From: Phoronis australis
Taxonomy: Eukaryota > Animalia > Phoronida
Assembly (NCBI GenBank): GCA_002633005.1
Contig: NMRA01000404.1
Location: 20,384-84,383 of the forward strand
Reading direction: 5' to 3'
Length of the DNA stretch: 64,000 nt
Shown here: in pieces, positions 12,371 to 64,000 of the stretch
How the letters are laid out: every line of letters starts with the position of its first letter
Position numbering within the stretch: the first letter of the stretch is position 1
Position numbers and translations under genes: made by a program
Notes under the pieces: generated by a model
Told to the model about the DNA's origin: nothing
Seen by the model: the letters and a program-made list of their open reading frames with translations, nothing else
Database searches by the model: none

Positions 12371-14305
12371 GAAACGATGTTGTGTTATAGCTAAAGTGTG
12401 ATTATTTGTGTTTGATTCAAAAGAGATGACTGTTACATTGCTAATTATTGTTGTTCTATTTTTACCCAAGGTGATGCCTTACTTGCAGTAAGGATAAATA
12501 ATTTTGGGGAAGTATTACCAGCGATTTCCGTATATAAGTTCGGGAAACCAAACGTCTTATGTAAAAATACACCAAGGCCTATACTCAGCAAATTGCCGAA
12601 TACACGAACACAGTATAAATACTGTAGCTCACCCTAATTTTTGTAGTGGGAATAGCATTATTTTTAGATTTCAAGCATGCATTTTTATTCTCTTATTGTC
12701 AGAGAATTTCCAAATTTTGACTGTGTTCAGGTAGCCTTGAAAATAAAACTTGTTTTTAACATTTCTTTAAAGCACAAGTTTATTGTAACCACCAAGATTA
12801 TGAAAAAGGAAAACTCAGTGATGCACTTATCAGTGGGTGGTTTCCTCAGCTTTGACTGCATTCAGGCCAATCACATGCCATCACTGTAGGCAGAGTATTA
12901 TATGGTGATTCCAGTTCGTACACTACTGTACGAACTTCTTGTCCCTTGAGAGCTTCGTGTTTCAATTAAGAGTTGCACAAAACTGCTGTAAAGATGAAAA
13001 ACAAGTGTTCGCATTATTATAGAAAAAGATCGATGACAACAATGAATGCAACAGTGGCTGTAAGAGTGGGTGATAGCACAAGGTGTCAACTAGACATTTA
13101 ATACATTTAGTCTTGTTGAAGTGACAGTTATCTACAAACGGCAAAACATTTTGTAAGATAACGGAACCATACAACATTCCCAAAACGTTACCCAATACAG
13201 CTAGCACACCCGGGCTCGACCCCGCCCCGCATTCGACGAAACCATGACTGTAAAGCCGTAGTTAGAAGGTAACAATGAAACACTACAGGTATACAATAAG
13301 CAGACCTACAGTAATAGGATAAACGTAATGCATTAACTAAGTAAATTTACTTACTAGAGCTTTTTGCATGGCCCAGACTCTAAATTACATCATTACATGA
13401 TGAGCACCAATATTTGAATGAGTGCTACAAATGTTCGCACTTAAAACAATCAACTGTACTCTGATTGGTTATAGACTACTATGGTAACATATGCACAGCT
13501 AACATGGAATTCTCGCTAGATTATGGCCACCAAAAATTGTTCACCACACAATTTCAATTATTTTCCTCTCTAGACATTAGGACCACTGAAGGTTGGCACT
13601 GGGAGCCTTTTCTATAAATATGAAGGAATGGCAGTCAGCTGGTGAAGGATTACATTTCTTCCTTTATGACAGTCACACTGAAATGGGCAACACTAAAGTG
13701 GTATTTGTTCCTTTGTGATATACCACAATGTCATTGTGCACTATCCTGTCATAGCTTATTAGATCATATCACAGCAAACCTTGGTGAAATTCAGCCAGTT
13801 GCCCCTCTATTATTCTGAATCCAATGCACTGTGTGTGACCTATTTTCCACTTCAGCAGAAGATATCTAACTTTCTGGAAACTACTTTCCCAGGTCAAGAG
13901 GTCATTCACAACTTTTGCTATTATGGTGGAACAAGTAACTTGCATACAATAAATTGTAGAGAATATTGTGATAATTTCTGGTGAACAACCTCACCAAGAA
14001 GCATGTGCTTTTAGTCAAATTTTCTGCAAAATTCCACAAAAAGGTACACGTTTTCTAGAAATGAAAAATTATAGAATATTCTACTTAACACAAAGAATCA
14101 AATATGCTGCAGGAACATCAAGGCATAGCTAAATTTCATTTCATATATAAATTCATAACAGGTCTCAAAATCAGTTTTCATAATGTCCTTTATTTTATGC
14201 GGCTTTTCAGATGAAAACAGATTTTTCCATCAAAATCATTAATTACAGCCTCAATTTTTGACGGTATCTAATTAAAGAAATAGCCTGTTTTGTCTGGAGA
14301 ACAAT

Positions 14306-14413
14306 GTTGATAGGATAGTGTCCGCTGGTAGGATAGTGTCCGTTGGTAGGGTAGTGTCCGTTGGTAGGGTAGTGTCCGTTGGTAGGGTAGTGTCCGTTGG
14401 TAGGATAGTGTCT
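14306..14413. repeat. Minisatellite, 18-bp unit x6
   Basis: GTTGGTAGGRTAGTGTCC repeated six times. Confidence 0.95.
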
Positions 14414-15627
14414 GTTTCATTTGAGTCTAATATGCTGTTTTTGAGATACCATGTTGGCAAAATCTCTAAATTTTCATCATTCATAACCATAAAGTAAGAC
14501 TTTAACCTTTAAGCTGGAGGCAAAGGTTAATATCCAATTTAAGCACCGCATGAATAGCTAAACCATTGATGGGCAGGCATATTTAAAATGCGATATTCTG
14601 TTGCCAATCACAAAAGAAAGATGCAAGTTGGATAGTTTTAAAATATTTTATTTAAAGTTAGCCGTTTTTACAAACATGATACACTTCTTGAGCAAAAGTG
14701 AGGTCAAAGCATCCATCCTTTCCAAATCATTGTGAAGACACAAGTAATAAAAATGTAATACTGGTTAAATCCCTTCTTAATACTGACATAGACAAAAGCA
14801 GAAAAGTTAAATATTCAGACCTGTCCAAAATGACCAGGTACCGAAATGCACAATGTCACACTGCATAAAATTAAGATGCACGGTATTCCTCTCTCACGGA
14901 TCTGAAGATCCCCCATCAAGCACCAGGCACCCCACACTGTGTAATTGTGTGCTCACAAAGAGATCAGCCCCACTCCCACTCATTATTTCCAACCGTTCCT
15001 ATCTATTACCGCCCTTAATCTGATATACGTACTGTGTGACCCTCAGTCGAGAAATTTAAAATAAATTCTCTCATGCACGCTGTCTGCTTATCCCAACCCC
15101 CTGTTGCGAGGGAACCGTTGAATAAGAGCGGGACAGGTTTTCACGGACGTGCGGTCATTTTTTTCATAGGCTGAAAATTCTTCACATTAAATTTAGACCC
15201 TGTGAAAAAAACTAACCGGGGTCATTTTTCACAGGGTCATAGCTAATGCTACATCGGCTCAGTTGGGTATATTTCCATTCAGTTTCGAGTCGGAAATCCT
15301 GTATTTTGAGTTAAGGCAGAGTGGATGCGCAATTCAGTTGTACAGGTTTGATATATTGGTTACTATGCAATTTACTTTTTTGCACAATTTTCGTCACAAA
15401 ACAGAGAACTTGTAAGCAAGCAGTGCAAATCTAAAAAAATGCCAATATCAACTTCGACATAAGCACAGATTTTGCAGGGATTTGTTGAGATACAACAGAA
15501 AACATCTGATTTTGGAATACGTATTAAGAAATGAGTTTTTAAAGCAGTATACATTTCAGTAGAGAATAAATACACTATTCACTTAGATGTACTGATTTCG
15601 ATGCCCCGGCTGGCGATCAAGTTCGGG

Positions 15628-19307: not shown

Positions 19308-22098
19308 TATTTAAAAAAAAATAAATGCAGGTTGACACTAATTGATAGTACTGGCTCTGTGGGCCCTAGTCCAAGAAAACTGACTTAGCTAAGACAAATG
19401 TTAAATTTACGTCAAATTTAAAAAATATCTTCAGTTTGTCTTAAGTTTGTTCCAAGAAAGTGATCTGAAGTGTGACTTTTCATAGTTTGGAAGTTGACAC
19501 AAAACGTAGAGTTAAGTCTTTTTTCTGGAATGAGCCCCTGAGTTTTAAGGTACAGTCATTTGTTCTCTTGAGCATGAAATGGTTCTCATGGCTCCATAAA
19601 AAACAAATTTGTTATTATAACCACCTTACCCAATTGTCACACTGAGATCTTTACAAAATACCCAATATGGCAATTACAATAAAAGCATCAGGTTTCTTAA
19701 GGGCCGCAAACATTTTAAGATGTGCATGCGAGATATGGAAGGTATTCAATTGTGCTGATTTTTTGCTGTAGTTTGAGAATGTAAGAAAGAAGCATCTAAT
19801 ATTTTTTTGGGCAGTCACACTAACCAAAGGTAGCTGTTCCAAAAGCGAAGTTCTTGCCATTATTTCTGCAATACAGCTGTCATTTTTATGCAACCAACAT
19901 TAAACTTGTGTAAAGCGTGTAATGGTAGCTTGAGGCTATGATATTGTTTGGACACAAGTGCAGATCCCCACTGATTGTTCCTGTGAGGAAATTTTGAGGT
20001 ATGTAAGAAGATACATCTGTTCAAAGGCTACAGTGTTTACTCTAATAGTTTGTGCACTAGTGTACAAGCTATTTTTCCCTTGAGAGCTTCATGTCGTACA
20101 AACTATTAGAGAAGAAAGTCGAATGGTTGAACTTTTAGAGATAAAGATCGAAGATAGCAGAGTTCAACGATGGCCTCTGAGATGATGGTGCACAATGTGA
20201 ATTATTAGAGAAAACATATAGGATGTGTGTCATCCATTTCTTGCTATTATTTCATTACTCAAGGTATTAGAGATTTTCCGATTTGATGACTGCTGTTTTA
20301 TTGAGCGATTTCTTTATGCGCTTTTGTTGTACAAGATTTTTTTTGGTAATGTTTATGGGCGTACCTAACCTATCATATGGAGTCTTGCATTAACTGGAGC
20401 CTCAAGTAGCACAAGAATAGTGTCCAAAATTGATGTCAAAAGTGAGTTTATCCTTTAACCAAAGATTTATAAATAAAGATAATATATTAATAACCGTTGT
20501 GCAATTGTAGGAAGAGGAACCAAATAGCAAATATTTTCGTATGTCGTGATTTTGATGGAAAAGACACTCTTCTGTTTGGGAATTTATGTATATGATGGAT
20601 ATGCAGAGTAAGGCCTTGAAGCACAATGTATCATTTTACCAACTAACATGTACCTCACAATATGGTGGTTTACTCTTATAAACTGTTTGCTTCATCTAAT
20701 AGTTGAAAAATTTGTTGAACACACAACAAGGTTTACATTTAATAAGTTCAATGATAGTAGTACATAGAATGCAGCAAAAAGTTAATTTCCCTTAGACCTG
20801 TTTAGCATATTATACATTTCCTGTCAAATAGTACAATAGTTATGACTTCATTGTACCCTTAAAAGCCATTTTAATTGTTCCTCATTAGTTTTTGGACAAA
20901 GTTACCTGCTATCTGTTGATTGCATGAAATATGAACCATGACTCAATTTTGTTATCATTGTTAGTGCCAATTAAGATTGTGAATTGTTCCTCTCTCTCTA
21001 TCTTTTATGAAAGTTTTTGTATAAAGCCAAACGTACCTGGGGCATAAATTTACGTTCTATAAGCTATTACTTGAGGGTTGTTAGAGACATTTTTTTGTGT
21101 ACAGTTCTAGGACAATACATTATTTCCATCTAAAGAATATTTCTAACTATACTACATTATTGATGTCCCAATATGTGTGTAGAGACCTATGCATTATTGT
21201 TAATATTCATTTGTAGGAGAGGCAGTGAATTGTGCCCTCCAGCCATTTGTTTTGTCATGCATAATACTAGGAGTATCCCTTATTCAGATTTGAGATACTG
21301 GCTAAGGCTTGAAGAGAACTGATGGTACAATTGTTGCTCTAGACAGTGTTTATTAAGTTGCTGGTCAGGTGTGGTCTCTGCAATAAATTTAGTCACCAGC
21401 TGCCAGGGGAATTTAAACAAAGGTTAAGGAGGTTAAGAAGGATGAGGTTGGCCTAGGAATGGTAAATATGCCTGTGAAGAGAGTTGATATATTTATCAAC
21501 AACGTGGTGTACCTAGCTTTAACTCAATGCGGACTGTTTGAACATTCTTGCGTTTACTTATTCTTTTTATTTTTGATATCTAGATTGCATTATTAAAGTT
21601 GCTCTTGGTGAACTTAAAACAGTTTGTTAGGGGACAATTCCTGGCCCTAGGGACCTCTACCTCAGTGACTCCTGCCTAGGGGTGTGAAGGCTAAAGTGGC
21701 TTAGCCATTTTTGCCTATCTGGAACCTACTGAATATTATAAGTGCCATTGACATGCTCCAGTTATGCGTTTATTGTACTAGTTACTGAAATGTGTAATTA
21801 CTTTAACATTTAGCGCACATTATGGGGGGGGGGCAACTGAACTTGTAGTTTATCAAATTTCTCATCAACAAGAAATGTGGAGAAAAATCCACTTTAAAAA
21901 GTAACCAGCCTTTGAAAAATTCAACATTTGTAACTTTTTGTCCCAAATAAATTGGTGTGATTGAAACTTTGAGATGCTATGCTTTATGCACTTACTTTCC
22001 AAAACACTTTTCTGATAGAAACTGTTTTTAAAATGTTCCACTTTTGCACAAAGGGCTATTTAAAATTAATTGGATGTTTATGATTTCATGAAGATATG

Positions 22099-22283
22099 AA
22101 AAGTGTTGTATAAAATAAGTGTTGTACAAAACAAAAGTGTTGTACAATACAAAAGTGTTGTACAAAACAAAACTGTTGTACAAAACAAAACTGTTGTACA
22201 AAACAAAAGTGTTGTACAAAACAAAACTGTTGTACAAAACAAAAGTGTTGTACAAAACAAAAGTGTTGTACAAAACAAAAGTG
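22099..22283. repeat. Minisatellite, 18-bp unit x~10
   Basis: AAAA(G/C)TGTTGTACAAAAC tandem array; accounts for the ORFs called at 22028-22297. Confidence 0.95.
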
Positions 22284-22583
22284 AAATGGTAATTTAGGGA
22301 ACCCTCAGCAGCATTTTTTGAGATTTCATCTTGAAAATTTACATCAACTGAAACTAGGTCATGTTATTAAAGAGGCATGGAACGCGAAAGCTCGTCAAAA
22401 TATTTTTAAATGATTCAAAAAGAAAGCACCATCTCACAATGTGTACTACTAAGCTACAGTTATTCACTTTCCCCTGTGAGAGAATTTCCAGAAAAAATCA
22501 CTAAATTTGCAATGTTTGAAATACGCTTGAAGAAAAACACTGTTAAGTCATCACAGAGTTTTTAATTTCTCTGCCACTTGTGT

Positions 22584-28060: not shown

Positions 28061-29275
28061 TTTGCGTTATTTTTNNTTATATTTGTGAACGAAAACTTGA
28101 CGTCACACTTCGCATTCATCTACTTTTATTCAATTTTGTATGCCGTTAGTAATACTCGGTTAAACCTGAAAAGTTTCTTTTCTGTCTTAGTTGGTCAGAC
28201 TATTCCCAACACTATACCTACCTGCAAGATAAATTTGCTATAGACTACTTTTCTGAACGTTTTGATGATTTTATATTTGTATGATATTTGTAGTGTTGGT
28301 TTGTCATTAATACACGTTTAAACGCTATCGGTTTTATGTTCTGCGTTAGCTGGTCGCTTCTTATTATTAGTAGTATTATTAGTACGATTCGCTCAGTACC
28401 GTCGGGGCCTGGGTTAGACTTTACGCGACATCTGTTGTTGGGTTGGGTGGTTATCGCCTTTTTCCTTTGTTTTTGATGAAACAAACACACAATATACAAC
28501 GACACTCGGCGCACACGAACTAAGGTAATTCACGTTTTGTTCTTATCATCTTTTGTTTCAATCCGTTGCTAGGAGCCGCAAAACGAGTTGCCTGTCTAAT
28601 TAAACCTATTACGTCATGACGTCATTGACACATCCGTCCGCTAGGTGTCCCGATCGCAGTTATACCACGTGACCTCCTTTCACATAGATGACCTTTGACC
28701 GAGACCCGCAAAGTAAGACTCCTAAATGACTTACTATACTACTGATGTTGATTGATGCGACTTTTCAGGGCTTGTGTGGTTTCCCCAATGTTTGCTTTCC
28801 CACAGTCTGGTTCCGAGCATGAAATGCCTTACACCACATTTGATTTTTTCTCTGTCGTGGTCTTATCTTTCACATTCATCAGCTGACTCCTTATGATGTT
28901 ACTCTGGAGTTCCGAATAGTAGTAGAGACAGCAATAATAGTAGAGACTTATAATAGTACAGACCCAACATTTTTGCCACTAGAAAAGTAGAATAATAATA
29001 TAGACCGGAAATTGTCGAAAAAAATTAATAATTAAGTATAGAATGGAATAATGGTATAGACGGCAAATTTTTGGAAATTTAAACATAGTATAGACTGGAA
29101 TAATAATATTGGTTACAAATTTAGGTAAAAACTAATAATGATGTAGATGGGATTGGAATAATAATGCAAAGAAGCATATTCTGTCTGACCGCTATAATTA
29201 TGCGCCCACATATTTATATGTGGACGCATTATGCCGTCATCTCTGTTCGTCCGTCCGTCCGTCCGGGCGGCGTCC

Positions 29276-29665
29276 GTCTTCGATTCGCAGTTTTCACATA
29301 TACAAAGAAATTCGGATTCCTGTTGAGGGAGAAGATCTGTACGGGAAAGATACAATACAATCCCGTTGACAAGTACGATGCATCTGTTCTGATAGGCCAG
29401 AGCATTATAGGACACGTCACTCGCTAGTTAACAAAACTTTTGCGTTCTTTTTGAACCAAGGTAGAAGTTTGAAGTGTATAGTCATGGCTAAAAAGCAGCG
29501 AGGCTTGTGGTCTACAAGTTCCGTGCACAATGACTTTTTCAGGACTGTCAGATCTTATTGATAAATTGAAGACGTTCATTTTAGCAACGTCTGTAAACGC
29601 GTGGGCATCGCCTATAGGGGCATGAGTGCTTATAGGGGCATGGGCGCTTATTAGGGCGAATACAG
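29276..29665 (-). mobile_element. Tc2-like MITE, left-end fragment inside HINE A
   Basis: Ends GGGCGCTTATTAGGGCGAATACAG|TA; reverse complement of ~17853-18285. Confidence 0.8.
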
Positions 29666-30032
29666 TATGTGTTCTTTCTGTGTAGTAAACGGCTCACGAT
29701 GATTTTTGGATGACTTCGAATACTGTGGCACCTCCTGGTGGTTGTTTTTGCGCCTGTGACTGTATCTGCTTAATGTTCTACAGGATCTTTGAAGTTTGCA
29801 AATGTATTTATATGAAGTTGACAACGGACGATGATGACTTTCGTATAGATTGGAGTACCGGTGTGCCCCCTAGTGGCAATTTTAGCTTTTGTTACCCGTT
29901 TACCCCTTTATCTTCAATGGTCCTCAACGAGTTCCCATAAAATTTGTCAGGTAGGCGTCTATTAGTGAGGTAATGTTATCCATCCGTTTTTGGAGTGATT
30001 CAAGGTTATTTTACACCACCTAGTGGCCATTG

Positions 30033-31602
30033 TTATGCGCCCACATAATTTTATGTGGACGCATTATGCTATCATCCCAATCTGTCCGGCGACTGTCCTG
30101 TGTGCGGCGTCTGCTTCTCTACTTCCAAAAGCCTTTAACATTATTGTGTTCATGAAACTGCACATAGGTTCCTTTCATGGATGGCATGAGTGAACTTTCG
30201 GACGGGTGCGACTACCGGTATGCCCCCTAGTAGCAATTTTAGTTTTTTACATTTACTGTATCCTCATCGGATTTTCATAAAATTTGGCATATAGGCATCT
30301 ATCAGTGAGACGAAAAGGTCCTTCGATCTTCAGATGGATTTGAGGTATTTTGCTTCACCTAGTGGCCATTTTTACTGTTTTCGAGTGTTTTTTGGCATCT
30401 GCCCCTCTGTCAACAAAACTAGATGGTTTGGAAATTGGCATGTGTGCTTCTACTATGAAGAAGATGGCTGTCAATGATTTTCTGATGACCTCGAGTACAG
30501 TAGCGCCTTCTAGTGGCAGTTTTGTTTTATTTACACCCATGGCTGTATCTCCCAAACTCTCCCAACATCTTTATTTAACAAGTGCATTTCTATAAAGTTG
30601 ACGGCGATGACTTTCAGACAAAAACGACAAAGGCTGTGCCCCCTAGTGGCAATTTCCTTTTTCCGTTTTCCTCTGTTTTTTGGCGTCCTCCCCGCTATCA
30701 ACCAAACCGCTCTAAGGATGATTGTGAAAATTGACATGTGTTTTCTTACTATGACGAGGACGGCTGAAGACAATTTTCCCATGATTTCGACTACTGTGGC
30801 GCCTCCTAGTGGCAGTTTTTTTGCGCTCATTGCTGTATCACCTAAACTGTGCGCAGGATCTTTACTAAATTTAGCAAGTGTATGGATGTCAGATGTTGAC
30901 AACCTAAGACAATGACTTCCGGACGGATCTGACTACCGGTGTTTCCCTTAGTGGCAATTTTAAGTTTTTTACATTTATCTCTGTATCTTTAAAGGCCTTC
31001 GAGGTATTTTCATAAAATTTGGCAGTTAGGCATCTATTAGTGAGATGACACTATCCTCCCATTTTCGGGTGGATTTGACGTAGTTAGCGCCACCTAGTGG
31101 CCATTTTTGCTGTTTTTCGAGTCTCATTGGCGTCCAACGAAACCATTCTAAGGATGATTTTGAAAATTCGCGTATATGTTCTCAGTATGAAGAGGACGGC
31201 TGATGATAACCACTTTGACTACTGTGGCACCTCCTGGTGGTAGCTTTGTTTTGTTTTGTACCCATAGCTGCATCTCCTAAACACACTGCCCGATCTTTAT
31301 TAAATTTAGTGGTTGTGTAATATATGAAGTTAACAACGGTCTTTCAGGCAGATCCAATGAACGCTGTGCCCCATAGTATCAATTTTCCGTTTTCCTTTGT
31401 TTCTCTGATGGTCCTTGACAGATTCTATGAAATTTTGTAGATAACTTTCTATTAAAAAAGCGATGCATGTTCTCGTTTTCAAATGGATTGAACGTTTTTG
31501 CACCATCTAGTGGTCATTTTTATGAAACAAATAAACAACCCTAGAAGCACACCGTTTGCTTTGGATTCATGGGCATATTTCAACGCTCTGCGTTGCTCTT
31601 GT
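30033..31602 (+). mobile_element. HINE/DINE-1-like element B with central ~140-160-bp tandem subrepeats
   Basis: 5' TTATGCGCCCACATAA…TTATGTGGACGCAT; 3' tgggcatattt plus hairpin CAACGC-tct-GCGTTG plus ctcttgt. Confidence 0.75.
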
Positions 31603-31836
31603 GAAATTTGTTAAATAGGTTTCTATGAAAGAAGCCATGACAAGTTCCCGTTTTTGGATGGATTTGACTCATTTTGCGCCATCTAGTGGCCATTTCTGTG
31701 ATACAAATAAACAGCCCTAGAAGCACACTGTGTGCAGTGCCTTCGTGGGTGAATTTCAATGCCCCGCGTTGTTCTTATATTGTATTCTGTTTTTTGTTGT
31801 CCTCGGTATCTTTGAAACTCCTTCATTGGCTGATTT

Positions 31837-33540
31837 TTATGCACCCACATATTTATATTGGGACGCATTGTGTCGTCATCTCTGGCTGTCCGTTCGCTGC
31901 TCTATCTCAAAAACCCCATGACGTATGTTCATGAAATTTTGCACATGTGTTTCTTCTGTAAATGGGATGGTATTAGCTAACTTTCGGGCGGATCCGGCTA
32001 CTGGTGTGTCCCCTAGTGGCATTTTTAGTTTTTTACGGTTACCTCTAAGTACTCAACGGATTTTCATAAAATTCAGTATGTAGTCTTTTATGAGTGAGGT
32101 GACACTATTCTCTTATTTTCGGATGGATGCGACTTAGTTTGCGCCACTCAGTAGCCATTTTTACTGTTTTCGAGTCAAATTTTTTGTGTCCACACCTCTA
32201 TCAACCAAATCGCTCAAAGAATGATTGTGAAAATTGGCATGTACGTTTTTACTATGAAGTGGATGGCTGAGGATGATTTTCCAACGACTTTGGTTACTGT
32301 GGTGCCTCCTCGTGGCAGTTTTGTTCTTTGCGCCTATGCCTGTCCTAAACCGTTCGCAGGATCTTTACTTTATTTAGTAAGTGTATTCATATGATGTTAA
32401 CAATGGATGACGACGACTTTCGGACAGATTTGACTACTCGTGTGCCACCTAGTGGCAATTCTATTTTTTATGTTTATCTCTGTATCTTCAAAGGTCCTCA
32501 ACGTGTTTTCATAAAATTTGGCCTACAGGCATGTTTTAATGAGGTGACGCAATCTCTCCATTTTCAGATGGATTCGACCTAGTTTGCACCACCTTTAAGT
32601 CTCCATTTTTTATTGTTCTCAAGGGTGCTTTTGGCGTCCACTCGTCTATCGATCAAACTGCTTTCAGGATAACTGAAAATTGGCATGTATGTTTTTGTTA
32701 CAAAGTGGCCGGCTGATGATGATTTTCCAACGACTTCCACTACTGTGGCGCTTCCTAATGGCAGTTTCATATTTTTTATGCTCATGGCTGTATCTCCTAA
32801 ACAGTTTGCAGGATCTTTATTTAATTTAACAACTGTATGAATATGATGTTGACAACAAATGACAACGACTTTTGTACGGATCTGACTTCTGATATCCCCC
32901 CTAAAGGCAATTTTATTTTCTTACGTTTTAACTCTGTATGTTCAAAGGTCCTCAACGGATTTTCATAAAATTTCAAATATAGGCATCTATTGGCGAGGTG
33001 ACGTTTTCTTCCTGTTTTCGAATGGAATCAAGGTATTTTGTACCACCTGGTGGCCATTTTTGCTGTTTTCGAATCTTGTTTTTGGCGTCCACCTTTCTAT
33101 CAACCAAATCATTCTAGGGATGGTTTTAAAAATTGACATATATGTTCTCAGTGTGAAGGGGACGTTTGATGATGGTGACTAACTATTGTGGCACCTCCTA
33201 GTGGTAGTTTTGTTTTGTTTTGCGCCCATGGCTGTATCTCCTAAACCCACTGCAGGATGTTTATTAAATTTAGTGAGTGTATTTATAAGAAGATAACAAC
33301 AGATGATGACTTTCAGGCAGATCCAACAGACGCTGTGCCCACTTAAGTGGCAACTTCATTTTATTCTGTTTTCCTTTGTTTCTCTGAAGTTCCTTGACAC
33401 ATTTTTATGAAATATGGCATGTTTCCGTTTTTGTTAGATTTTACATTTTTGGCCATTTTTGATACAAATGAATAACCCTAAAAGCATACCATTTGCGAAG
33501 CATTTGTGGGCGCATTTCAACGCTCCGCGTTGCTCTCGTT
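31837..33540 (+). mobile_element. HINE/DINE-1-like element C with central tandem subrepeats
   Basis: 5' TTATGCACCCACATA…; 3' subterminal inverted repeat GTGGGCGCAT, hairpin CAACGC-tcc-GCGTTG, then ctctcgTT. Confidence 0.8.
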
Positions 33541-34450
33541 ACGAAATAAGTAGGTTTCAGTTAGAGTCGACAGGTTCCCATTTTCTATAGATTCGACATA
33601 TTGTAGCCATTTTTATTATCATGAAATTTTCGGGCGGATTTAACATATTCTGTGCTAATTGGTGGCCATTTTAAAAATTGTTCAGTAGGTTTTTGATATC
33701 ACCAAACCTCTTGAAGGATCATTATTAAAATTTGGAGATGTATTTCTGATGAGAAGACCTTGGCTGACGTCGATATTCGGAGGTGTTCAACTACTCTGGC
33801 GTCCTCTAGTGGTGTTTTTTGCATCCACAGGTTTATCTCCTATACTGTTTGTAACATCTTTTTGAAATTCAGCAAATGTGTTCCTGTGGAGATTTCAACA
33901 GATGACGGTGAGATTCAGACCAATCCAACTACAGCTGTGCTCCGTAGTGGCACTGTTACTTTTTTGTTTGCTTGATGCTTTGGCAAACAACTTTCTATTG
34001 TGAAGACGACAACACCTTCCCTTTTTTGTGATGGATTTGATGTATTCTGCACCAACTTATGGCCATTTTTATTGTTTTTAGTCTGTTTTTTCTGTCTGCT
34101 TATATATCTGCTAAATTGATCAGAGGATCATTATGAAAATTGGAAGATATGTTTCTAAGGACGTGAGCATGACTGACATGGATTTTCAGATGGTGCTTCA
34201 GTGACATTTTTCCGCATGTACGGCTGTATATCCTTAACCCCTTGCAAGTTGTTTTTGAAATTTTGCTATTGCATTCCTATTAAATTGATAGCAGGCGGAC
34301 GAATTCAACTAACTCTGTGGTTCCTAAAGGCTGTTTGTTTTTTAAGTTTGCCTTTGTGTCTTTGGATTTGTTTTGCAGATTTTCATAAAATTTGGCAAAA
34401 TAGTTTTGAGAGACGATTACTCCTTACCACTATGTCGTCTAAGGCCATTT
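33541..34450 (+). repeat. Older, more degenerate array of the same subrepeat
   Basis: Recurrent tggccatttt, aaatt(t)gg and ctagtgg motifs at similar spacing. Confidence 0.6.
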
Positions 34451-51701: not shown

Positions 51702-52608
51702 TTTCAGCTTACAACACACTAAACAATCCCTAAATCCAACGCAGTTGAGTTCTCTACTAACCTATCTTGCCGCAGAATACTCGCCGATGGAAAGTGGTGG
51801 CGACAATTGGTGAAAAATAGCACAAAACAAAAGTAGAATAGAACAGATTCGCACAGTAAAGTCAACGCAAAACCAAGTGGCGGGAAACGCTTGCCTCCTA
51901 AAACGTCACTTCCGGAGTAGCGAACGAGTATTTAATAAAATTACGAAAAGCTGTAATTAAATGGAAAATATGTCTAGGATAACCAACCAACCTTATTTTA
52001 GCTCAAAATGACATGGAAAAAGGTTGCCTTTGCCTTTAAATCATAATGGTCCTCTGATTTATTCTTTCATTTCAATGATTGAGTGAACAAAGCATGATAT
52101 AATTAGCTTGGCACTGATATAATTTGTTCACTAGCATCTTCAGGCAACATTTCTTGATGCCTTGGCTTTACTATTTTTCAATAGAGTAATACATAAATTT
52201 TAAAAACATACAGTTGAAAACCAAGTTCACTGGAAGTTTTTCATTCCATGGGTTCTTGCAATTCTGTCATTGAGATTGCCACCTCCACTCAAATTACAAT
52301 TATCGATGTGGTTCAGTTGTAAGGTCACTTCCTTCGTACTGACTGCTTAATAAATAAAAAATTATTAGATTTTATATTGAACTTGTCATACTTATGTGCT
52401 CCAACGAGCCCCCTATTTGGAGTAACGGAAAAAGGTCTGCCTCAGTCAGAGAAGCAATAACTCTGAAAAAAGTAGAAAACGAGACAAAAGTCCACTAGAA
52501 GGCAGGAAGTACCAAAATTTGCATCTTCAGGTCATAGCTCTGAACATACCCAATGAATCTTATATTACCATAAAAGGTACACTTTCTCAAAATTTGAGAC
52601 CCCCATAT

Positions 52609-52930
52609 TTATGCGCCCACATATTTATATGTGGACACATTATGCCGTCATCTCCGTCTGTCCGGGCGGAGTCCGGCGTCCGCTGCTCTATCTCCAAAAC
52701 CCTTTGACATAAGTTCATGAAATATGGCATATATGTTCAATTCATGAATGGGACGGCATGTGCGAACTTTCGGATGTGGTATGTAGGCACCTATTAGTGA
52801 GACGACGCTATCCTCCCGTTTCAGATGGATTCGACATAGTTTGCGCCACCTAGTGGCCATTTTTACCATTTTCGAGTCTGTTTTTGCGTCCACCCCTCTA
52901 TCAACCAAACCGCTCAAAGGATGATTATGA
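52609..52930 (+). mobile_element. HINE 5' fragment
   Basis: TTATGCGCCCACATATTTATATGTGGACACAT plus gtcc repeats and one array unit containing GCGCCACCTAGTGG (52843). Confidence 0.8.
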
Positions 52931-56800: not shown

Positions 56801-59147
56801 ATTTATTTGTAGTAAGTTATGGACACAATCTTTTTGAAATCTGGGGAAGACTCAAAGCATTGATTTTCTGATGTATGTATAATCATTACTGGTTTAATTT
56901 ATAAGGCATTGGTTTGAAGTTGTAGGTATTTTATTTTTACTATAAATGTATGGGTGTTACATGGGCGGCACACCATAGGGAACTAGGGGCTATAGCTCCA
57001 CTTTTTTTCAGTGCTGCGCTGCCAATGTGTTAGCTACAATAATCATGACAAAGTAGTAGCGCTATATCAGCATGCGGTTGCGTGGTTGCAGTATAGTTAC
57101 AGATCGTGTTGAAAATTTTGGCGTTTTAACCGTATAATAGCCTGCACGGTAGGCACTTAAGCAGCGCCTGCAAGCCTCTCATTTGCGGTATTCATTTGCT
57201 TAATTTTCGAGGGTCGGTTTCTTTTGCATTGCAACTTTTAAAGTTCACAAATTTTGCTAAGGGTAAGAGATATGTTAATGTATTGAACATTTTGAAGCAG
57301 TACACATGGCCCATTTGTGTTAAGAGTAAAATTACAATGACCAGAATTATCACAATGTCTCTTATCAAGCGGCATGTGGAACGAACGAGTATTTTTAAAT
57401 AATATTGCATTGAAATCCAAACGTTTTTATGACAGAGGTGTTGAAAGTATTTTTAAATAATGTGCTTCTTTCTCAGGACTAAATTGCTAAAATGTTGTAT
57501 CACTGACTAATCATACCACTAGACTTTGAAGGAAACAATGGTATTTTCAAAACTGGCATTACGTGGGCTGGCTTGCAACAGTATGAATGGGCCTTTATTG
57601 AGGGCTCTATATCAATCAAAAATTGTGTTTACATCAGAGCTTCAAAAGACTTTGTCAGATTTTAATGCAAGTGTACGACACTATAGACAAGTTCAAAGAT
57701 TTTTAATATGTTCAAAATTATTGCCACTTGCAATCTCAAATTTATACAAAGTGTACCTGTTTCCCAGGAACTGTAACTTGTAAGCAATGGTTTAAAAATT
57801 GGAAAATTGCGGGAGTCGAAATTAAGTTTTAACAGAATTGGACAATTCAGTGTCTGCAGCTTAAGTGAAAATGTTAGATTGTCAAAATGCTGATGTAATT
57901 TGATATGCTGGCTTTAGTTTGAAAGTAGTTCCCTGCTAATGGAGCAAAGCTCATCATATAGCTATGCATAGCAGGCCCCACTGGCTAATGCACTGTGAAG
58001 TTTCAATTAAATTGGTTCAGCTGATAAGGACTTAATGAGCCCCTAAGAGACTTCTCAGACCAGGCCCGAAATGTGTTAAAGCCTTGTGGCATGATGATCA
58101 GAGGTTAATAACCAACATAGATGCACAATTTTAACTTGGACACTCACGCCAAATGAGATATGGATTTCGCAAGCTATTTTAAGTTGCGAGATCCATACGA
58201 TGGGATTCTACCATTGTTTTCCTTTGTTGCGTCTTTGGTGGATGTAACAATACTTGTTTCATGGATACTGTACCTGGGGGACACACCAGCCGGTTACCCT
58301 TAAATGCTTACCATTATCTTTATTATAAGAAACACAAAGTGTCAGCAATAGGTATACATGCCTATCTGCCCATATCTATGCTAGGAGCTTGAGCCCTTAA
58401 GTTTCCCATGGGCTAACATGTGTTATTGGCTGCATATTTTGGATGTTGATTTTGAGGAGGTCAACAGTATATTAAGCATGTGTCAATATTTCATTTATCT
58501 AGTGTGTACTAAGGACCAAAGTACATCCACATTATTTTTGTATTGATATTACCATGCGAAATTGTCTCCCCTTGATGAATATGAAAACCTCTAATACAGT
58601 CTTTTGGGAAACCGTATCATTTGGAGCAATAATACAAAATGAAATCGGGATTATTTTGAAGCAAGAATGTTGGGAAAATTCTTAAGAGGATCTTGGCAAG
58701 GGCAAAGGTTAACGAATAGGAAGTTAATTTAAGAGTTTGTCATTTGCATTATGAGTTGATACTGCTTTCATGGGTTGTGTGGGGGTCCCTATGAAGTGAT
58801 CAAGGTACTCTGTTGTGTAGGAAGAGGTAAACAGCATGTTGAAGTGTGGGACCATCTGATACTCCCCATAACTTTCCAGTTGTCGTGGTGAAGAAGAAAG
58901 TTTTTTCATTGACATAAAGAACAAAAATTTAAAGACAAGTGCAAGCTATTCTCATTCTTATCACATAAACACGCACAAACGAGCACATACACCCACCCCC
59001 TCAACGTAACCGCCCACTTTAGCTAGGATGTTGTCAGGAAAAAGTTATGGTTAACCAGTTCCTCCAGGTTACATGGTATTCATCTAAATTTATTATTATT
59101 TAATAAAATTCATGATCTTTGAATATAAAATTCTCTTTCTCACGTAG

Positions 59148-60800
59148 AGTCGCACAATGAAAGCTAAGCCGAGCAAATGTAAAACACTTGAATTTCGTGG
59201 AGGTACAACATTCCAATCATATGATCCTCAAATGTCAATACAGAATACAAAAATGCCCTACATCCACCAAGAACCAATGAAATTCCTTGGGAAAGCAATA
59301 TTCAAAAATCTGAAAGACACGGAAATACGGAATAAACTTGAGACAAAATTAATTGCTTTGCTGGAAATTCTAGACAAAGACAGCGCTAATGGTCCAACTA
59401 AAGCATGGATCTACAACAACAGCGTGGTTCCAAGCATTACTTGGGAATTTACAGTGTATGTCTCCCCAGTGGGTTTCGCTAAAAAACTTGGAACATATGT
59501 GTACAAAATATCTGAAACAATAGCTTGGAATCAGTAAAATGTCAACTAACACAGTTCTCTTCAGATCCAAAGAGCATCTTGGTTTAGGCATGACTACCCT
59601 AACAACCCATCTCAAGAAGATGCAAGTAGTCAAGTTTCACATCAACAAATATGCGAACGACCCTGAATCAAGGAAACTTTACATGGGTAAAGTTAAACAA
59701 TTTTCATGTCAAAACGGTTGTATGGCATAAAAGAACTCGAAGAGAGAGAAAGGGATATATTTCTGATTAGAATTTGTAATTCGAGAAGTCATAATGACAG
59801 GAAAGGTTTGGGTTATAACACCAATAATAGAAAATTCATCAAGAATATGACAACTAAAGAGCATAGAGCATCTATAACGAAACGAAACGTATAAAGGAAG
59901 TCGACGAAAATAAAGCACTCTTATATCTGTATAGTTGTGTCAAACAAGGGTTATGGCTCAGATGGGAAATAGTTATGTCACTGATGTATCTTGGAGCAAG
60001 AGTTTCTATGCATGGAATATATCTCTCGGCATTTAGGTTAAATGCCATACACGATGTACTTCCAACACCAGTTTATTTACATTTATGGAAACAATCACCT
60101 CCTGAATGCTGCAACCTCTGCAAAACAGCTAAAGGCACACTTCACCACATCCTCAACAATTGCACAGTAGCTTTAAATAAAGGTCGTTACACTTGGCGAC
60201 ATGACCAAGTCCTAGCAATAATATTTGATGCTATCATTGAAGTAGGTCAAAATCCTAAGCCTAGAACTGAAACAGCAATCGGATTTAAATCAAAGAATGG
60301 TATGTACTTCGACAATAACAGAACAGCTGAAATTCAGGGAACAGGCCCACTTCCTGGCCACGACCAGCGGTTGGAAACTAATTAAAGATTGTGCAGAAAT
60401 GCCTCTTATATTCCCATCTGAAATAACAGATTCCGCATTAAGACTTGACATTGTGTTATGGTCAATTCAGGCAAACAGCGCAATTTTAATAGAACTTACA
60501 GTATCAGCAGAAGACAATATGGAATCAGCACACCTGAGGAAAAGAATGAAATACACAAATCTCGTCGAAAAATGTAAAAATGCAGGATGGCAAACAGTCC
60601 TGTTCCCTAATGAAGTCAGCAGTAGAGGCTTCATCCGCAAATCATTAAAGTAACTTAAAATGAATTTCCTTGAGTTCCCCAAAGAAATCAAAAAACAAAC
60701 ATACCAAACGGCCTCTCAGACAGCTCTCAGATATAGCTATACGATATATTTATCAAGAAACAACAACCAATTTTTGGAATGGCAACTTTGCAACCTTTCT
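59148..60800 (+). mobile_element. 5'-truncated, decayed HERO-clade (RLE-type) non-LTR retrotransposon
   Basis: SRTMKAKPSKC…EPMKFLGK (end of RT); KAWIY…W.FTVY; DRKGLG; KQGLWLRWE..DVSW; AFRLNAIHDVLPTP; CNLC…GTLHHILNNC..ALNKGRYTWRHDQVL (CCHC knuckle plus RHD); LRLDIVLWS…IELTV..EDNMESAHLRKRMKY…FP.EVSSRGF (PD..E..K endonuclease, P>L). Several frameshifts and stops. Confidence 0.88.
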
Positions 60801-60899
60801 AGGCCAGTGATTGAAACCCAGAGAAAAGGTGAAACTATTCACCGTCATGATTCAATAGTTAGTAAGAGCCATATACAATCAGCTACTTCGTCATCCCCG

Positions 60900-61694
60900 A
60901 TATTAAGAAGACAAATCAAGAATCTACAAAAGATAAAAGATTTTGTCTTTGCTATGCTGGAAACACATTTTTTGTGAACTCTATGCTCCAAGCTATCTTC
61001 ATGTAACCTCAACTGGCACAAGTACTAAACAAGAAAAACAATATGAAAACCATCCTTGTGAACACGTATGAAGGAACCAAAAGGTATATATCAACTCAGT
61101 CTGAAATATTGAATAAACTAAGATCACAGAACAAATCTTGGCAACGGAAGTCAACAGGATGCCCATGAGTTTTTACTATGGTTACTGAACCAATGGCACG
61201 TAGAAACACTTGCTTACAACTCTGATAATGTATCGTCTGATGTTACTAGTACCTTCCAACACGTAAAGAAGCAAACTAGGAGTTGTAATAACTGCTCAAC
61301 AACAAAGGAAAAAACAGATAGACTGGGAGTTGACACGCTACCCCCCCCCCCAACACTGGGGAAAACAGTAACTATGCAGGAGTTGTGGCACAGCTTGTGG
61401 ACGTCGTTGAACATCGAAAACTTTAGTTGCCCACACTGTAGCAGTCTTAGTGGCCAGCTCACTTGGTCATTATTAAAACTGCCAAAATACCTTTGTATTT
61501 ACATCTTACGAACCGTCACTAATGGTAAAAAAATCAACACGCAGATTTCTTCGTATGACCTCTCTGGCTATAAAATAATAGCAGTCATTGAACACCATGG
61601 AAGAAACACAACGGGTGGTCATTACACATGCTGTGTTAAATCGTCATCATGGGAGTGGATAAATTTTGACGACTCTACAGTCACAAGTACATGA
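60900..61694 (+). pseudogene. Compact ubiquitin-specific protease (USP/peptidase C19) domain directly after the RLE domain
   Basis: Cys box CLCYAGNTFFVNSMLQAIF (60944-61000); QQDAHEFL (61152); CNNC and CPHC; LPKYLCIYILR; His box YKIIAVIEHHG…GGHY; WINFDD. One stop (61004) and one frameshift (~61143). Confidence 0.88.
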
Positions 61695-62019
61695 CCAAGC
61701 CTCCCCATATGAATTATCTTCTGAAATCCAACAAAGGAAATCAACCTAAAAAGTATGGCGCACTTTCAACATAGACTTAGCACATCACATCTGACTCAAA
61801 CAAGTCAAGATATTTTTGAAATTCATCCTGGTATGGGAATTGGGAATAGTTAGGCCTTTAAGAGATCTTAAACCCAGCTGTAGAGCGTCTAAAGCCCTGC
61901 ACCGTACCAGTGACTGTTGGCAACTCATCAGAGACACACCTGTAATATCCTTTGCCGCAGTGATAATAACTCTTGGGCTGTTTCTAGTGAGTCCATTCAT
62001 TCTTGAATGTTATTAAGGT

Positions 62020-63812
62020 AAAGTAAGAAAATGACAGAAACTGGGATTATTTTTACACTTATATACATATATAAAATATTTGAAAACTTTGTTTACTTAT
62101 AGGCAAGCCAAAAATCATTGTTTTTTGTCAATAATCATATTGATACTTTTTACCCACAACACCCAAATGCGTAATTCTATCAATATTCTCATATTATTGC
62201 ATTCGAAAAGGATGCAACCTACTGTTTCAGTTTGTCTTTGGCAGAAAGTACATACATCAGAGTCCACAAAGTTAATTTTTTTAAGAAAAGAGTTCGTTGC
62301 AAGTATTCTATGTAATAGTTTAAATTCTGTTGTACTTGAAATCGACAGTAGTTTTGAGAGACAAAGTTACAACCTGCTTCTTGAAATCTTTTTTGGGCAA
62401 TCACACTTTTGTTCTGGCAAATAATTTCATATATCATTTTACATATTGACATGCAGTTTAAAAAATTACGCATATTCAAAGGTATCATTGGTCCATATAT
62501 CTTAATTAAATGCAGTTGTAATGGTTTCCTTCTCAGAAACGACCTCATAGACTGAATCAGAGAGCAATATTCTAAAAAATGTGTAGGTATATTAGAGATC
62601 TTTTTAAATTCATTAAATGAGTAAAACCTGTTATTTTCATCAATGTCATTAATAAAAAGCATACCACCACTAACATACTTACTAACGAAGGTAATTTTTC
62701 TGCCTATTAGTATTTCATCGTTATGCCATAAATTCGTTGAGAGTAAATCATTCGCATCTTTATGGGGCTGTTTACTTTTGGAAAAGGACCAGTTGCTGAG
62801 AACTTCATTCCATAAAGGATTAACTTCTTCAGTATGATTTCTAATGTAATCATGCAATCCCCATTTCATGTTCAAATAATTTCACCCATTTTGGATCAAA
62901 GGTAAGTAGTCTTTTTATCCATGAAATTTTTATAGCCTTGTTAAAATTGTATTACTCAATTTCACTCCCTCTTTCTCATCAGTTGTAATTAATACATCTA
63001 TCTTCACTCTCTCAACTTTGTTATTCCAAATTAACTTAAAAAGTTTGTGTTCAATTCATTCATAATGATGTCTGATGGAGTAGGCAGAGCTGTCATTAAG
63101 TGAATAATTTTTGGCATCATCAAGATCTTTACCATTGTAACTGTCCCCAAAAAAATTTTCTTCTGGACCAAATTTTTGTAACATTACTGATTTCATCAAT
63201 CTTCTCATTCTAATTCATTTCAGTCATTTTTTCTAAGTTAACATTGAAATTGATACCTAGCATCTTAAATTCGGTTATGCCCCATTCTAACCTTCATCTT
63301 GCATGATGGAAAAATCTTAACAAAACAAAGTTTTTTACTGCCCATCCAAATAACATTTGTTTTGGAATAATTTTCTCTCAAACCGGACATTTCTGCATAT
63401 TTACTCAAAGCTTCTGCAGCTGAAGCTTCTAAAGTACGCAGGGAACCATCTAAATAGAAGTTATGTCAGCATACTGAGTGAGTAGAATTCATCATTTCCT
63501 ATTTGAATGCCTTTAATTTCCGTATCTTGTTTCGTCATCAAAGCTGATATTTCAGCACAGCACTTCAAATGAACAGAGAAAGAGGATCACCTTGTCTACA
63601 GCCCCTGTGCAGAATAAAACTTCTGGACAGAAAATCACTTTGAACAATGTATGACACTGGACATTCATAAAAAGTTTTAATCCAATGCTTAATTGAAACC
63701 TTGAAATTGATGATGTCCAAAACCTTATTTATGAAGTTCCGTGACCAGCTCTCAAAAGCTTTTTTCAAAATCTATATGTAACAACAGCCCCGGTATACCA
63801 TTTTTTCACACA
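62020..63812 (-). pseudogene. L1/Tx1-type LINE ORF2 fragment (RT to C-terminal knuckle)
   Basis: GIPGLLLHIDFEK(AF), GCRQGDPLS, QYAD, FKMLGINF, LWHNDEILIG…GMLFINDI, DSDVCTFC…ET…LFEC. Many frameshifts. Confidence 0.92.
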
Positions 63813-64000
63813 TATCGGTCAGCAGGTTCAGAACTGCTATAGGGGATCATTATCTCTTATCTGATTTTGTATACCTTACCCTATTGTGCCTGCATTGACT
63901 TTCATAATAAAGGGCTATTGTGGAGATGTTTAAACTGTAGGCTTGGGTAACAATAGGCATTCCTCTGCCTGTTACTAAAGACCAAGCTACACCACAAGGG

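Follow-up and report, generated by a model that had tools for sequence, protein, structure and literature searches.

A USP deubiquitinase domain carried behind the endonuclease of an RLE-type non-LTR retrotransposon family

Proteases of the ubiquitin and SUMO systems have been described in several classes of transposable elements. Among non-LTR retrotransposons, the available text of PMC4640811 describes an Ulp1 protease for NeSL and Utopia-1_TSP only, and that of PMC8557442 a Josephin-like protease in Dualen. DNA transposons have been joined to interchangeable deubiquitinase classes: the VTD domains of Helentrons are active deubiquitinases that, as PMC9741609 proposes, keep transposition proteins from being degraded, Ginger1 ends in a C-terminal OTU or Ulp1 domain, and a Trichomonas transposase is fused to Peptidase C19 (XP_001314237.1). 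The accessible portion of PMC2836005, which reports the latter two, also proposes that transposon Ulp1 and OTU domains act on DNA repair during transposition.

In RLE-bearing elements the RLE is described as C-terminal (PMC4640811 and PMC13708176, as far as their available text extends), and targeting within the HERO clade as mostly non-specific or directed to microsatellites (PMC4640811, same portion). HERO elements (HEROTn, HERO-1_BF, HERO-1_SP) encode a single ORF with an N-terminal zinc finger, RT, CCHC knuckle and RLE. The family reported here shares this layout; unlike in the HERO clade, its ORF does not stop at the RLE but goes on with a linker and a USP domain. Like NeSL, Utopia-1_TSP and Dualen, it places a ubiquitin- or SUMO-type cysteine protease in a non-LTR retrotransposon ORF, but the protease is of class C19 and lies downstream of the endonuclease, whereas Ulp1 is N-terminal. 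The Helentron, Ginger1 and Trichomonas fusions are DNA transposons, none of them a retrotransposon with a USP. The USP class and the post-RLE position in a LINE protein are what is new, transposon-borne deubiquitinases (Ulp1, Josephin, OTU, VTD) being an established theme. No USP in a non-LTR retrotransposon was found in full-text searches of the literature, which took in the available parts of PMC4640811, PMC2836005, PMC9741609, PMC8557442, PMC6431247, PMC10294476, PMC13580325, PMC13708176, PMC5678591 and PMC7650587; Repbase Reports, Dfam and most subscription papers lay outside this scope, so earlier cataloguing is possible.

The window, a stretch of 64,000 nucleotides from Phoronis australis, contains on its plus strand a 5′-truncated, decayed copy of an RLE-type non-LTR retrotransposon that belongs to a multi-copy family (Table 1). 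Its three-frame translation leads along that strand from an RT end through a thumb, CCHC knuckle, RLE and short linker to the full set of USP boxes, with stops and frameshifts breaking it up; in the RLE, LD stands in place of the PD motif. Matches (tblastn) to the intact relative P0004, described below, are collinear across 59136-61697, and the USP segment at 61137-61697 is 25% identical to it. A preliminary description made from the sequence had placed RT tail, CCHC knuckle, RLE and USP motifs on one strand, an arrangement that these matches and the UCH profile bear out; it had also seen both parts as similarly A-rich, and A content is indeed comparable over the two.

Table 1. Features of the retrotransposon copy in the window
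Feature	Position	Strand	Evidence
Whole element copy	59136..62024	+	P0004 homology from 59136; empty-site joints; unlike loose ends past 62022
RT end and thumb/linker, frameshifted	59136..59879	+	tblastn with P0004 residues 559-807, 37% identity
Linker helices and CCHC zinc knuckle (CxxC-H-C, RYTWRHD)	59882..60265	+	53% identity to P0004 807-935; Pfam zf-RVT E 3.7e-4 at 59867-60382, below curated cut-off
RLE	60330..60770 (tblastn match to 60833)	+	42% identity to P0004 955-1120; IELTV and KxxKY motifs
Variable linker	60771..60940	+	Comparison with other copies; frame test
USP / peptidase C19 domain	60941..61725	+	Pfam UCH E 1.4e-23 at 61122-61691; Cys box, QQDAHE box, two CxxC pairs, His box, FDD
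Likely 3′ UTR, high read depth	61780..62024	+	Read depth; no poly(A); folding z -0.81

The element encloses the USP. In empty-site contigs, 59138/59140 connects to 62024/62025 across 6-11 other letters, and many unlike loose ends set in behind 62022, marking diverse 3′ flanks in the read and contig comparison; the element end is therefore placed about 300 nt beyond the USP, at ~62022-62024 and not at 61694, where the preliminary description had let it stop. No target-site duplication was found at the 59136 and 62024 junctions, where the longest word common to both regions measures 5 nt and lies off the junction. No poly(A) is visible at the 3′ end, and the 3′ UTR folds no better than its shuffles. 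The 5′ truncation point falls inside the RT, and read depth climbs toward the 3′ end, as for 5′-truncated LINEs. Over the thumb, family contigs exceed the locus-specific ones in depth ~9-13-fold, and over the USP ~35-fold (run X3). This suggests a copy count in the tens and a bias toward the 3′ end, depth being only a rough guide to copy number; the 64-kb window itself contains no second copy. Far higher depth on both strands was seen at 61824-62071, together with a second frequent end behind 61981, and this peak may stem from copies truncated to a short length or from a SINE-like derivative whose 3′ end is the same.

The insertion interrupts a decayed LINE on the opposite strand (62024-64000 and ~59040-59140, minus strand), recognisable by an RT motif and a C-terminal zinc knuckle and which we take, from its motifs, to be L1/Tx1-like. 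The element has thus landed in another repeat and not in rDNA. The surrounding sequence is AT-rich (~37% GC) and rich in repeats. Elsewhere in the window, diverged repeats of ~440-450 nt with a shared CCACCTAGTGG core form an array with one dispersed copy (29190-34280 and 52600-52910), and 18-nt tandem arrays occur at 14288-14431 and 22076-22319.

Other copies of the family were observed through sequencing reads and short contigs, with eight of nine runs compared. Five DNA runs share words with the stretch, four from organism A and one from organism B, no indexed RNA run being listed among them, and the contigs of organism B cover just 60998-61130, part of the USP. Most compared reads are less than 95% alike to the window and so represent other copies. 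In the detailed comparison, over 60620-61130, an additional base follows 60906 in the other copies (9/10 RNA reads of run X8, a depth of 96 of 100 for the dominant contig in X2 and of 17.7 of 38 in X4). Its absence from the window copy shifts the USP out of the RLE frame, and the post-RLE frame (60654-60977) overlaps a Cys box that sits in another frame, as had been noted beforehand. The single-base indel postulated to explain this offset was confirmed at 60906, though it is not the sole break: the raw frame 60381-61691 holds seven stops, and the window copy differs from the others by indels at 60651/60657, 60906, 60997, 61025, 61027 and 61135. The other copies show a net −3 at 60651-60658, which removes an RLE stop at 60651 present in the window copy only, and +2 at 60997, 61025 and 61027, with a further +2 at 61135.

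When the breaks are read as X, the frame that leads from within the RLE to beyond the His box counts 439 codons and no stop. Two indels were left out of this test, a −1 at 60928 (six of nine X8 RNA reads, none of the DNA contigs) and a +2 at 61313 (26/68 and 29/58 reads), for which a compensating change was unseen among the indels listed. No single other-copy contig among those compared spans the RLE to the His box; the link between them is made by overlapping contigs and loose ends, bridged at 60855-60876 with an in-frame 6-nt difference, as judged by eye. Sister copies of the window family therefore carry an in-frame RLE-USP fusion. The USP motif set had been described as complete; the boxes are present, but the catalytic Cys codon at 60968 reads Phe in the window copy. 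A T>G difference at 60969, seen in 10/10 reads and in the dominant contigs, restores the Cys in the other copies, where the Cys-box codons read G, N, V, C. The last USP strand is likely partly deleted in the window copy, since a loose end before 61728 reads, by eye, as an AYI-type last strand.

Most other copies carry the USP, and no stop or separate tail stands between it and the RLE. In a minority, ~60903-60906 is joined to 61747-61760, which removes the USP almost exactly through an internal gap and keeps the 3′ end of the element. The USP-less joint has a depth of 17-25 per contig (X1, X3) against 79 and 264 with the USP, and these copies are either a derived deletion or the form before capture. 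RNA reads extend over 60460-61700, and their first mates fall mainly on the plus strand, which is antisense in most stranded libraries. They come from diverged copies and include a 57-nt skip as well as the 1-nt loss at 60928; probably they are decayed copies inside host transcripts. Because of the antisense-type strand, the skip and the other lesions, they do not demonstrate expression of an intact element.

An intact relative shows that the architecture does not depend on the window copy. A search with the window CCHC segment among longer proteins gave four matches, including P0004 at 53% identity. P0004 is a single ORF of 1523 aa with RVT_1 at 350-612, zf-RVT at 837-905 and UCH at 1226-1513 (E 2e-31), and it retains an N-terminal zinc finger, YADD, RPDI, IELTV and KRAKY motifs, an intact Cys box, QQDAHE, the His box and W..SD. 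Its RT is followed by a CCHC knuckle and a PD-(D/E)xK RLE in one ORF, collinear with the window, and in P0004 as in the window family the RLE is not the last domain of the ORF. The cluster comprises six ENA records (two full-length, four halves) on contigs of 5.1-7.0 kb. RT-CCHC-RLE-linker-USP is a natural one-ORF architecture, and the ancestral ORF of this form that had been proposed for the window element is upheld by P0004 and by the extra base behind 60906.

In a tree of 20 rows from RT end to RLE, the window element groups with P0004 and the fragment P0003 (99/99), within a larger clade (100/100) that also takes in P0014 and P0015. The best solved relatives are R2 proteins. The window clade is likely HERO-like, an assignment made purely by motif comparison by eye: P0004 has RT motifs similar to those of HERO rows in the PMC7650587 supplement, and the clade falls in a poorly resolved group, in a tree without named HERO sequences, with proteins whose motifs look HEROTn- or HERO-1_BF-like. 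Target sites seen here comprise the one insertion in another LINE and the diverse 3′ flanks.

The catalytic boxes (Cys, QQD and His, with the catalytic Cys, His and Asp/Asn) are intact in P0004 and in other copies of the window family. A model of the P0004 domain, built from an alignment of 32 USP sequences, reached pLDDT 89 and pTM 0.88 and aligned to USP2 and USP21 with TM 0.82-0.86 (Foldseek E 5e-26 to USP2); the predicted structure is a USP fingers-palm-thumb fold with a zinc site. The domain thus resembles the cores of cellular USPs (USP2, USP21, USP15; MEROPS C19, Pfam PF00443) in its Cys box, QQDAHE box, finger zinc site, His box and predicted fold. It differs from them in its ~22-25% identity and in being compact, without regulatory modules, and the comparisons made bring out no orthology to any one host USP. 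Giant-virus USPs fit the model no more closely than cellular USPs do, and hence no viral origin is claimed. Where the window USP has Asp-Asp, P0004 has Ser-Asp; Ser at that position occurs in some active USPs.

Between P0004 and its variant P0009, 11 of 115 linker residues differ, against two of 299 in the USP and one of 313 in CCHC plus RLE (Fisher p 2.4e-5, from two sequences only), which suggests constraint. The USP trees, made from 37 and 20 of 124 extracted domains, do not repeat the RT-RLE grouping. The window and P0004 USPs are only ~25% identical and group in 0% of bootstrap trees, a grouping neither supported nor rejected (AU p 0.325), and the nearest relative of the window USP is P0033, an unnamed 373-aa ENA protein (31-33% identity; 98/95). 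One capture followed by fast divergence and two separate captures would both be consistent with these alignments. Among proteins of 334-2000 aa, two matched the window USP, both with domain sets of cellular USPs. No match to an RT-RLE profile at E<0.1 was found in these two or in the best 150 of 907 phmmer matches, P0004 itself lying outside the best 150; the fusion is therefore rare in the protein collection.

The predicted combination of RT, RLE and UCH was found in one cluster, that of P0004, among 17 long RT relatives; six of the others carry an N-terminal Ulp1, one (P0014) a JAB/MPN domain and nine no protease domain, some of these being incomplete. In P0014, residues 1158-1230 lie behind the RLE and a linker and form an AMSH/STAMBP-like JAMM piece (Pfam above cut-off; E 5e-13 to an AMSH-like protease), which comprises just the first ~70 residues of the domain in a single record. 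The order of RT-RLE followed by JAB/MPN echoes that of Prp8, a likeness that is probably convergence. P0015, close kin, ends shortly after the RLE. P0020, P0022 and P0024-P0027, HERO-like RT-RLE proteins with N-terminal Ulp1, form a clade of their own. In the Atlas, one RT+Ulp1 cluster numbers 102 members and stands beside generic UCH and RT clusters; no RT+UCH cluster was present among the clusters listed, small clusters being outside the search. A metagenome scan returned at least one decayed relative (L001), nearest to P0015 and with no USP match among the matches listed, and scans of viral contigs returned no related loci. We tentatively propose, as one possible reading of these sequences, that a deubiquitinase slot behind the RLE in the HERO-like lineage was filled independently by two USPs and an AMSH-type JAMM, the sister lineage having taken an N-terminal Ulp1.

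Separately, two JGI proteins (P0060 and P0181) are Helentron-like, with a PIF1 helicase and an AP-type endonuclease, and end in a compact USP with intact boxes that groups with P0058 and P0103. USPs may therefore also ride on rolling-circle transposons, for which only OTU and VTD domains were found named in the literature covered.

We consider it likely that the tethered, in-frame USP deubiquitinates in cis, shielding the protein or RNP of the element itself against degradation directed by ubiquitin. The ORF protein would bind its own RNA and insert by target-primed reverse transcription, as in other RLE LINEs; the USP behind the RLE would strip ubiquitin in cis, its substrate being the ORF protein rather than host chromatin, to the benefit of retrotransposition. 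The domain order, the in-frame fusion, the catalytic motifs and the mobility of the family, seen in its 5′-truncated insertion into another LINE, are observed. Self-protection draws on the intact P0004 ORF, the window-family frame, the position of the USP inside the element, the RT-RLE clade, the constraint and the predicted fold, and it is favoured because deubiquitinase recruitment recurs (the P0014 JAMM, Ulp1) and Helentron VTDs are active (PMC9741609, in the part available). Against it count the dispensability of the USP, which is missing from P0015, from nine of 17 long relatives and from the minority copies lacking ~60903-61747, the single UCH among those 17, and the failure of the window and P0004 USPs to group. 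An active USP could instead work at the insertion site, on repair factors or histones where the DNA has been nicked, or on silencing and defence proteins, and so ease integration. Directly behind the endonuclease on a flexible linker it would reach the nick, and a role in DNA repair has been proposed for transposon Ulp1/OTU (PMC2836005, in the part available). The AMSH-like domain of the sister element P0014 also fits signalling more than degradation, as AMSH prefers K63 linkages. No substrate-targeting module is seen in the compact P0004 domain, however, which resembles generic catalytic cores, and the present data do not separate substrates; we regard an insertion-site target as rather unlikely.

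That the USP is a tolerated passenger, a host coding sequence captured in frame at the 3′ side, separately in the window and P0004 families, with USP-less copies ancestral, appears improbable. It would account for the two USPs not grouping, for USP-less copies with an identical 3′ end, and for close kin with no domain or a different one. Yet catalytic and zinc-binding residues are kept in a domain only ~31-33% identical to the nearest known USP, P0004 and P0009 differ far less in the USP than in the linker, and random capture would not repeatedly bring deubiquitinase classes to one slot. We give hardly any credence to an adjacency of USP and LINE at this locus only, by independent retrocopy, one-off transduction or assembly chimera: the two parts do lie in different frames in the window copy, but they are in frame in other copies, the element's 3′ end lies past the USP, and the fusion recurs in the independent protein P0004. 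A locus-specific retrocopy is ruled out by the in-frame copies and P0004, and an intron-containing host USP gene beside the LINE by the lack of an intron-sized gap and, again, by the shared frame.

These results add the USPs, the largest deubiquitinase family, and probably JAMM enzymes too, to those carried by retrotransposons, at a position that had been thought to end the protein. They touch on the question of why unrelated transposon classes keep gaining ubiquitin and SUMO proteases. Because the ORF exists intact in nature and close relatives lack the USP, the role of the domain can be tested directly by one point mutation, and the tolerance of an RLE protein for a C-terminal enzyme fusion bears on the engineering of R2-like gene-insertion tools. 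If the slot behind the RLE has indeed been filled repeatedly, this would point to hosts restricting LINE retrotransposition by means of ubiquitin, with enough force to have driven the repeated capture of counter-defence enzymes.
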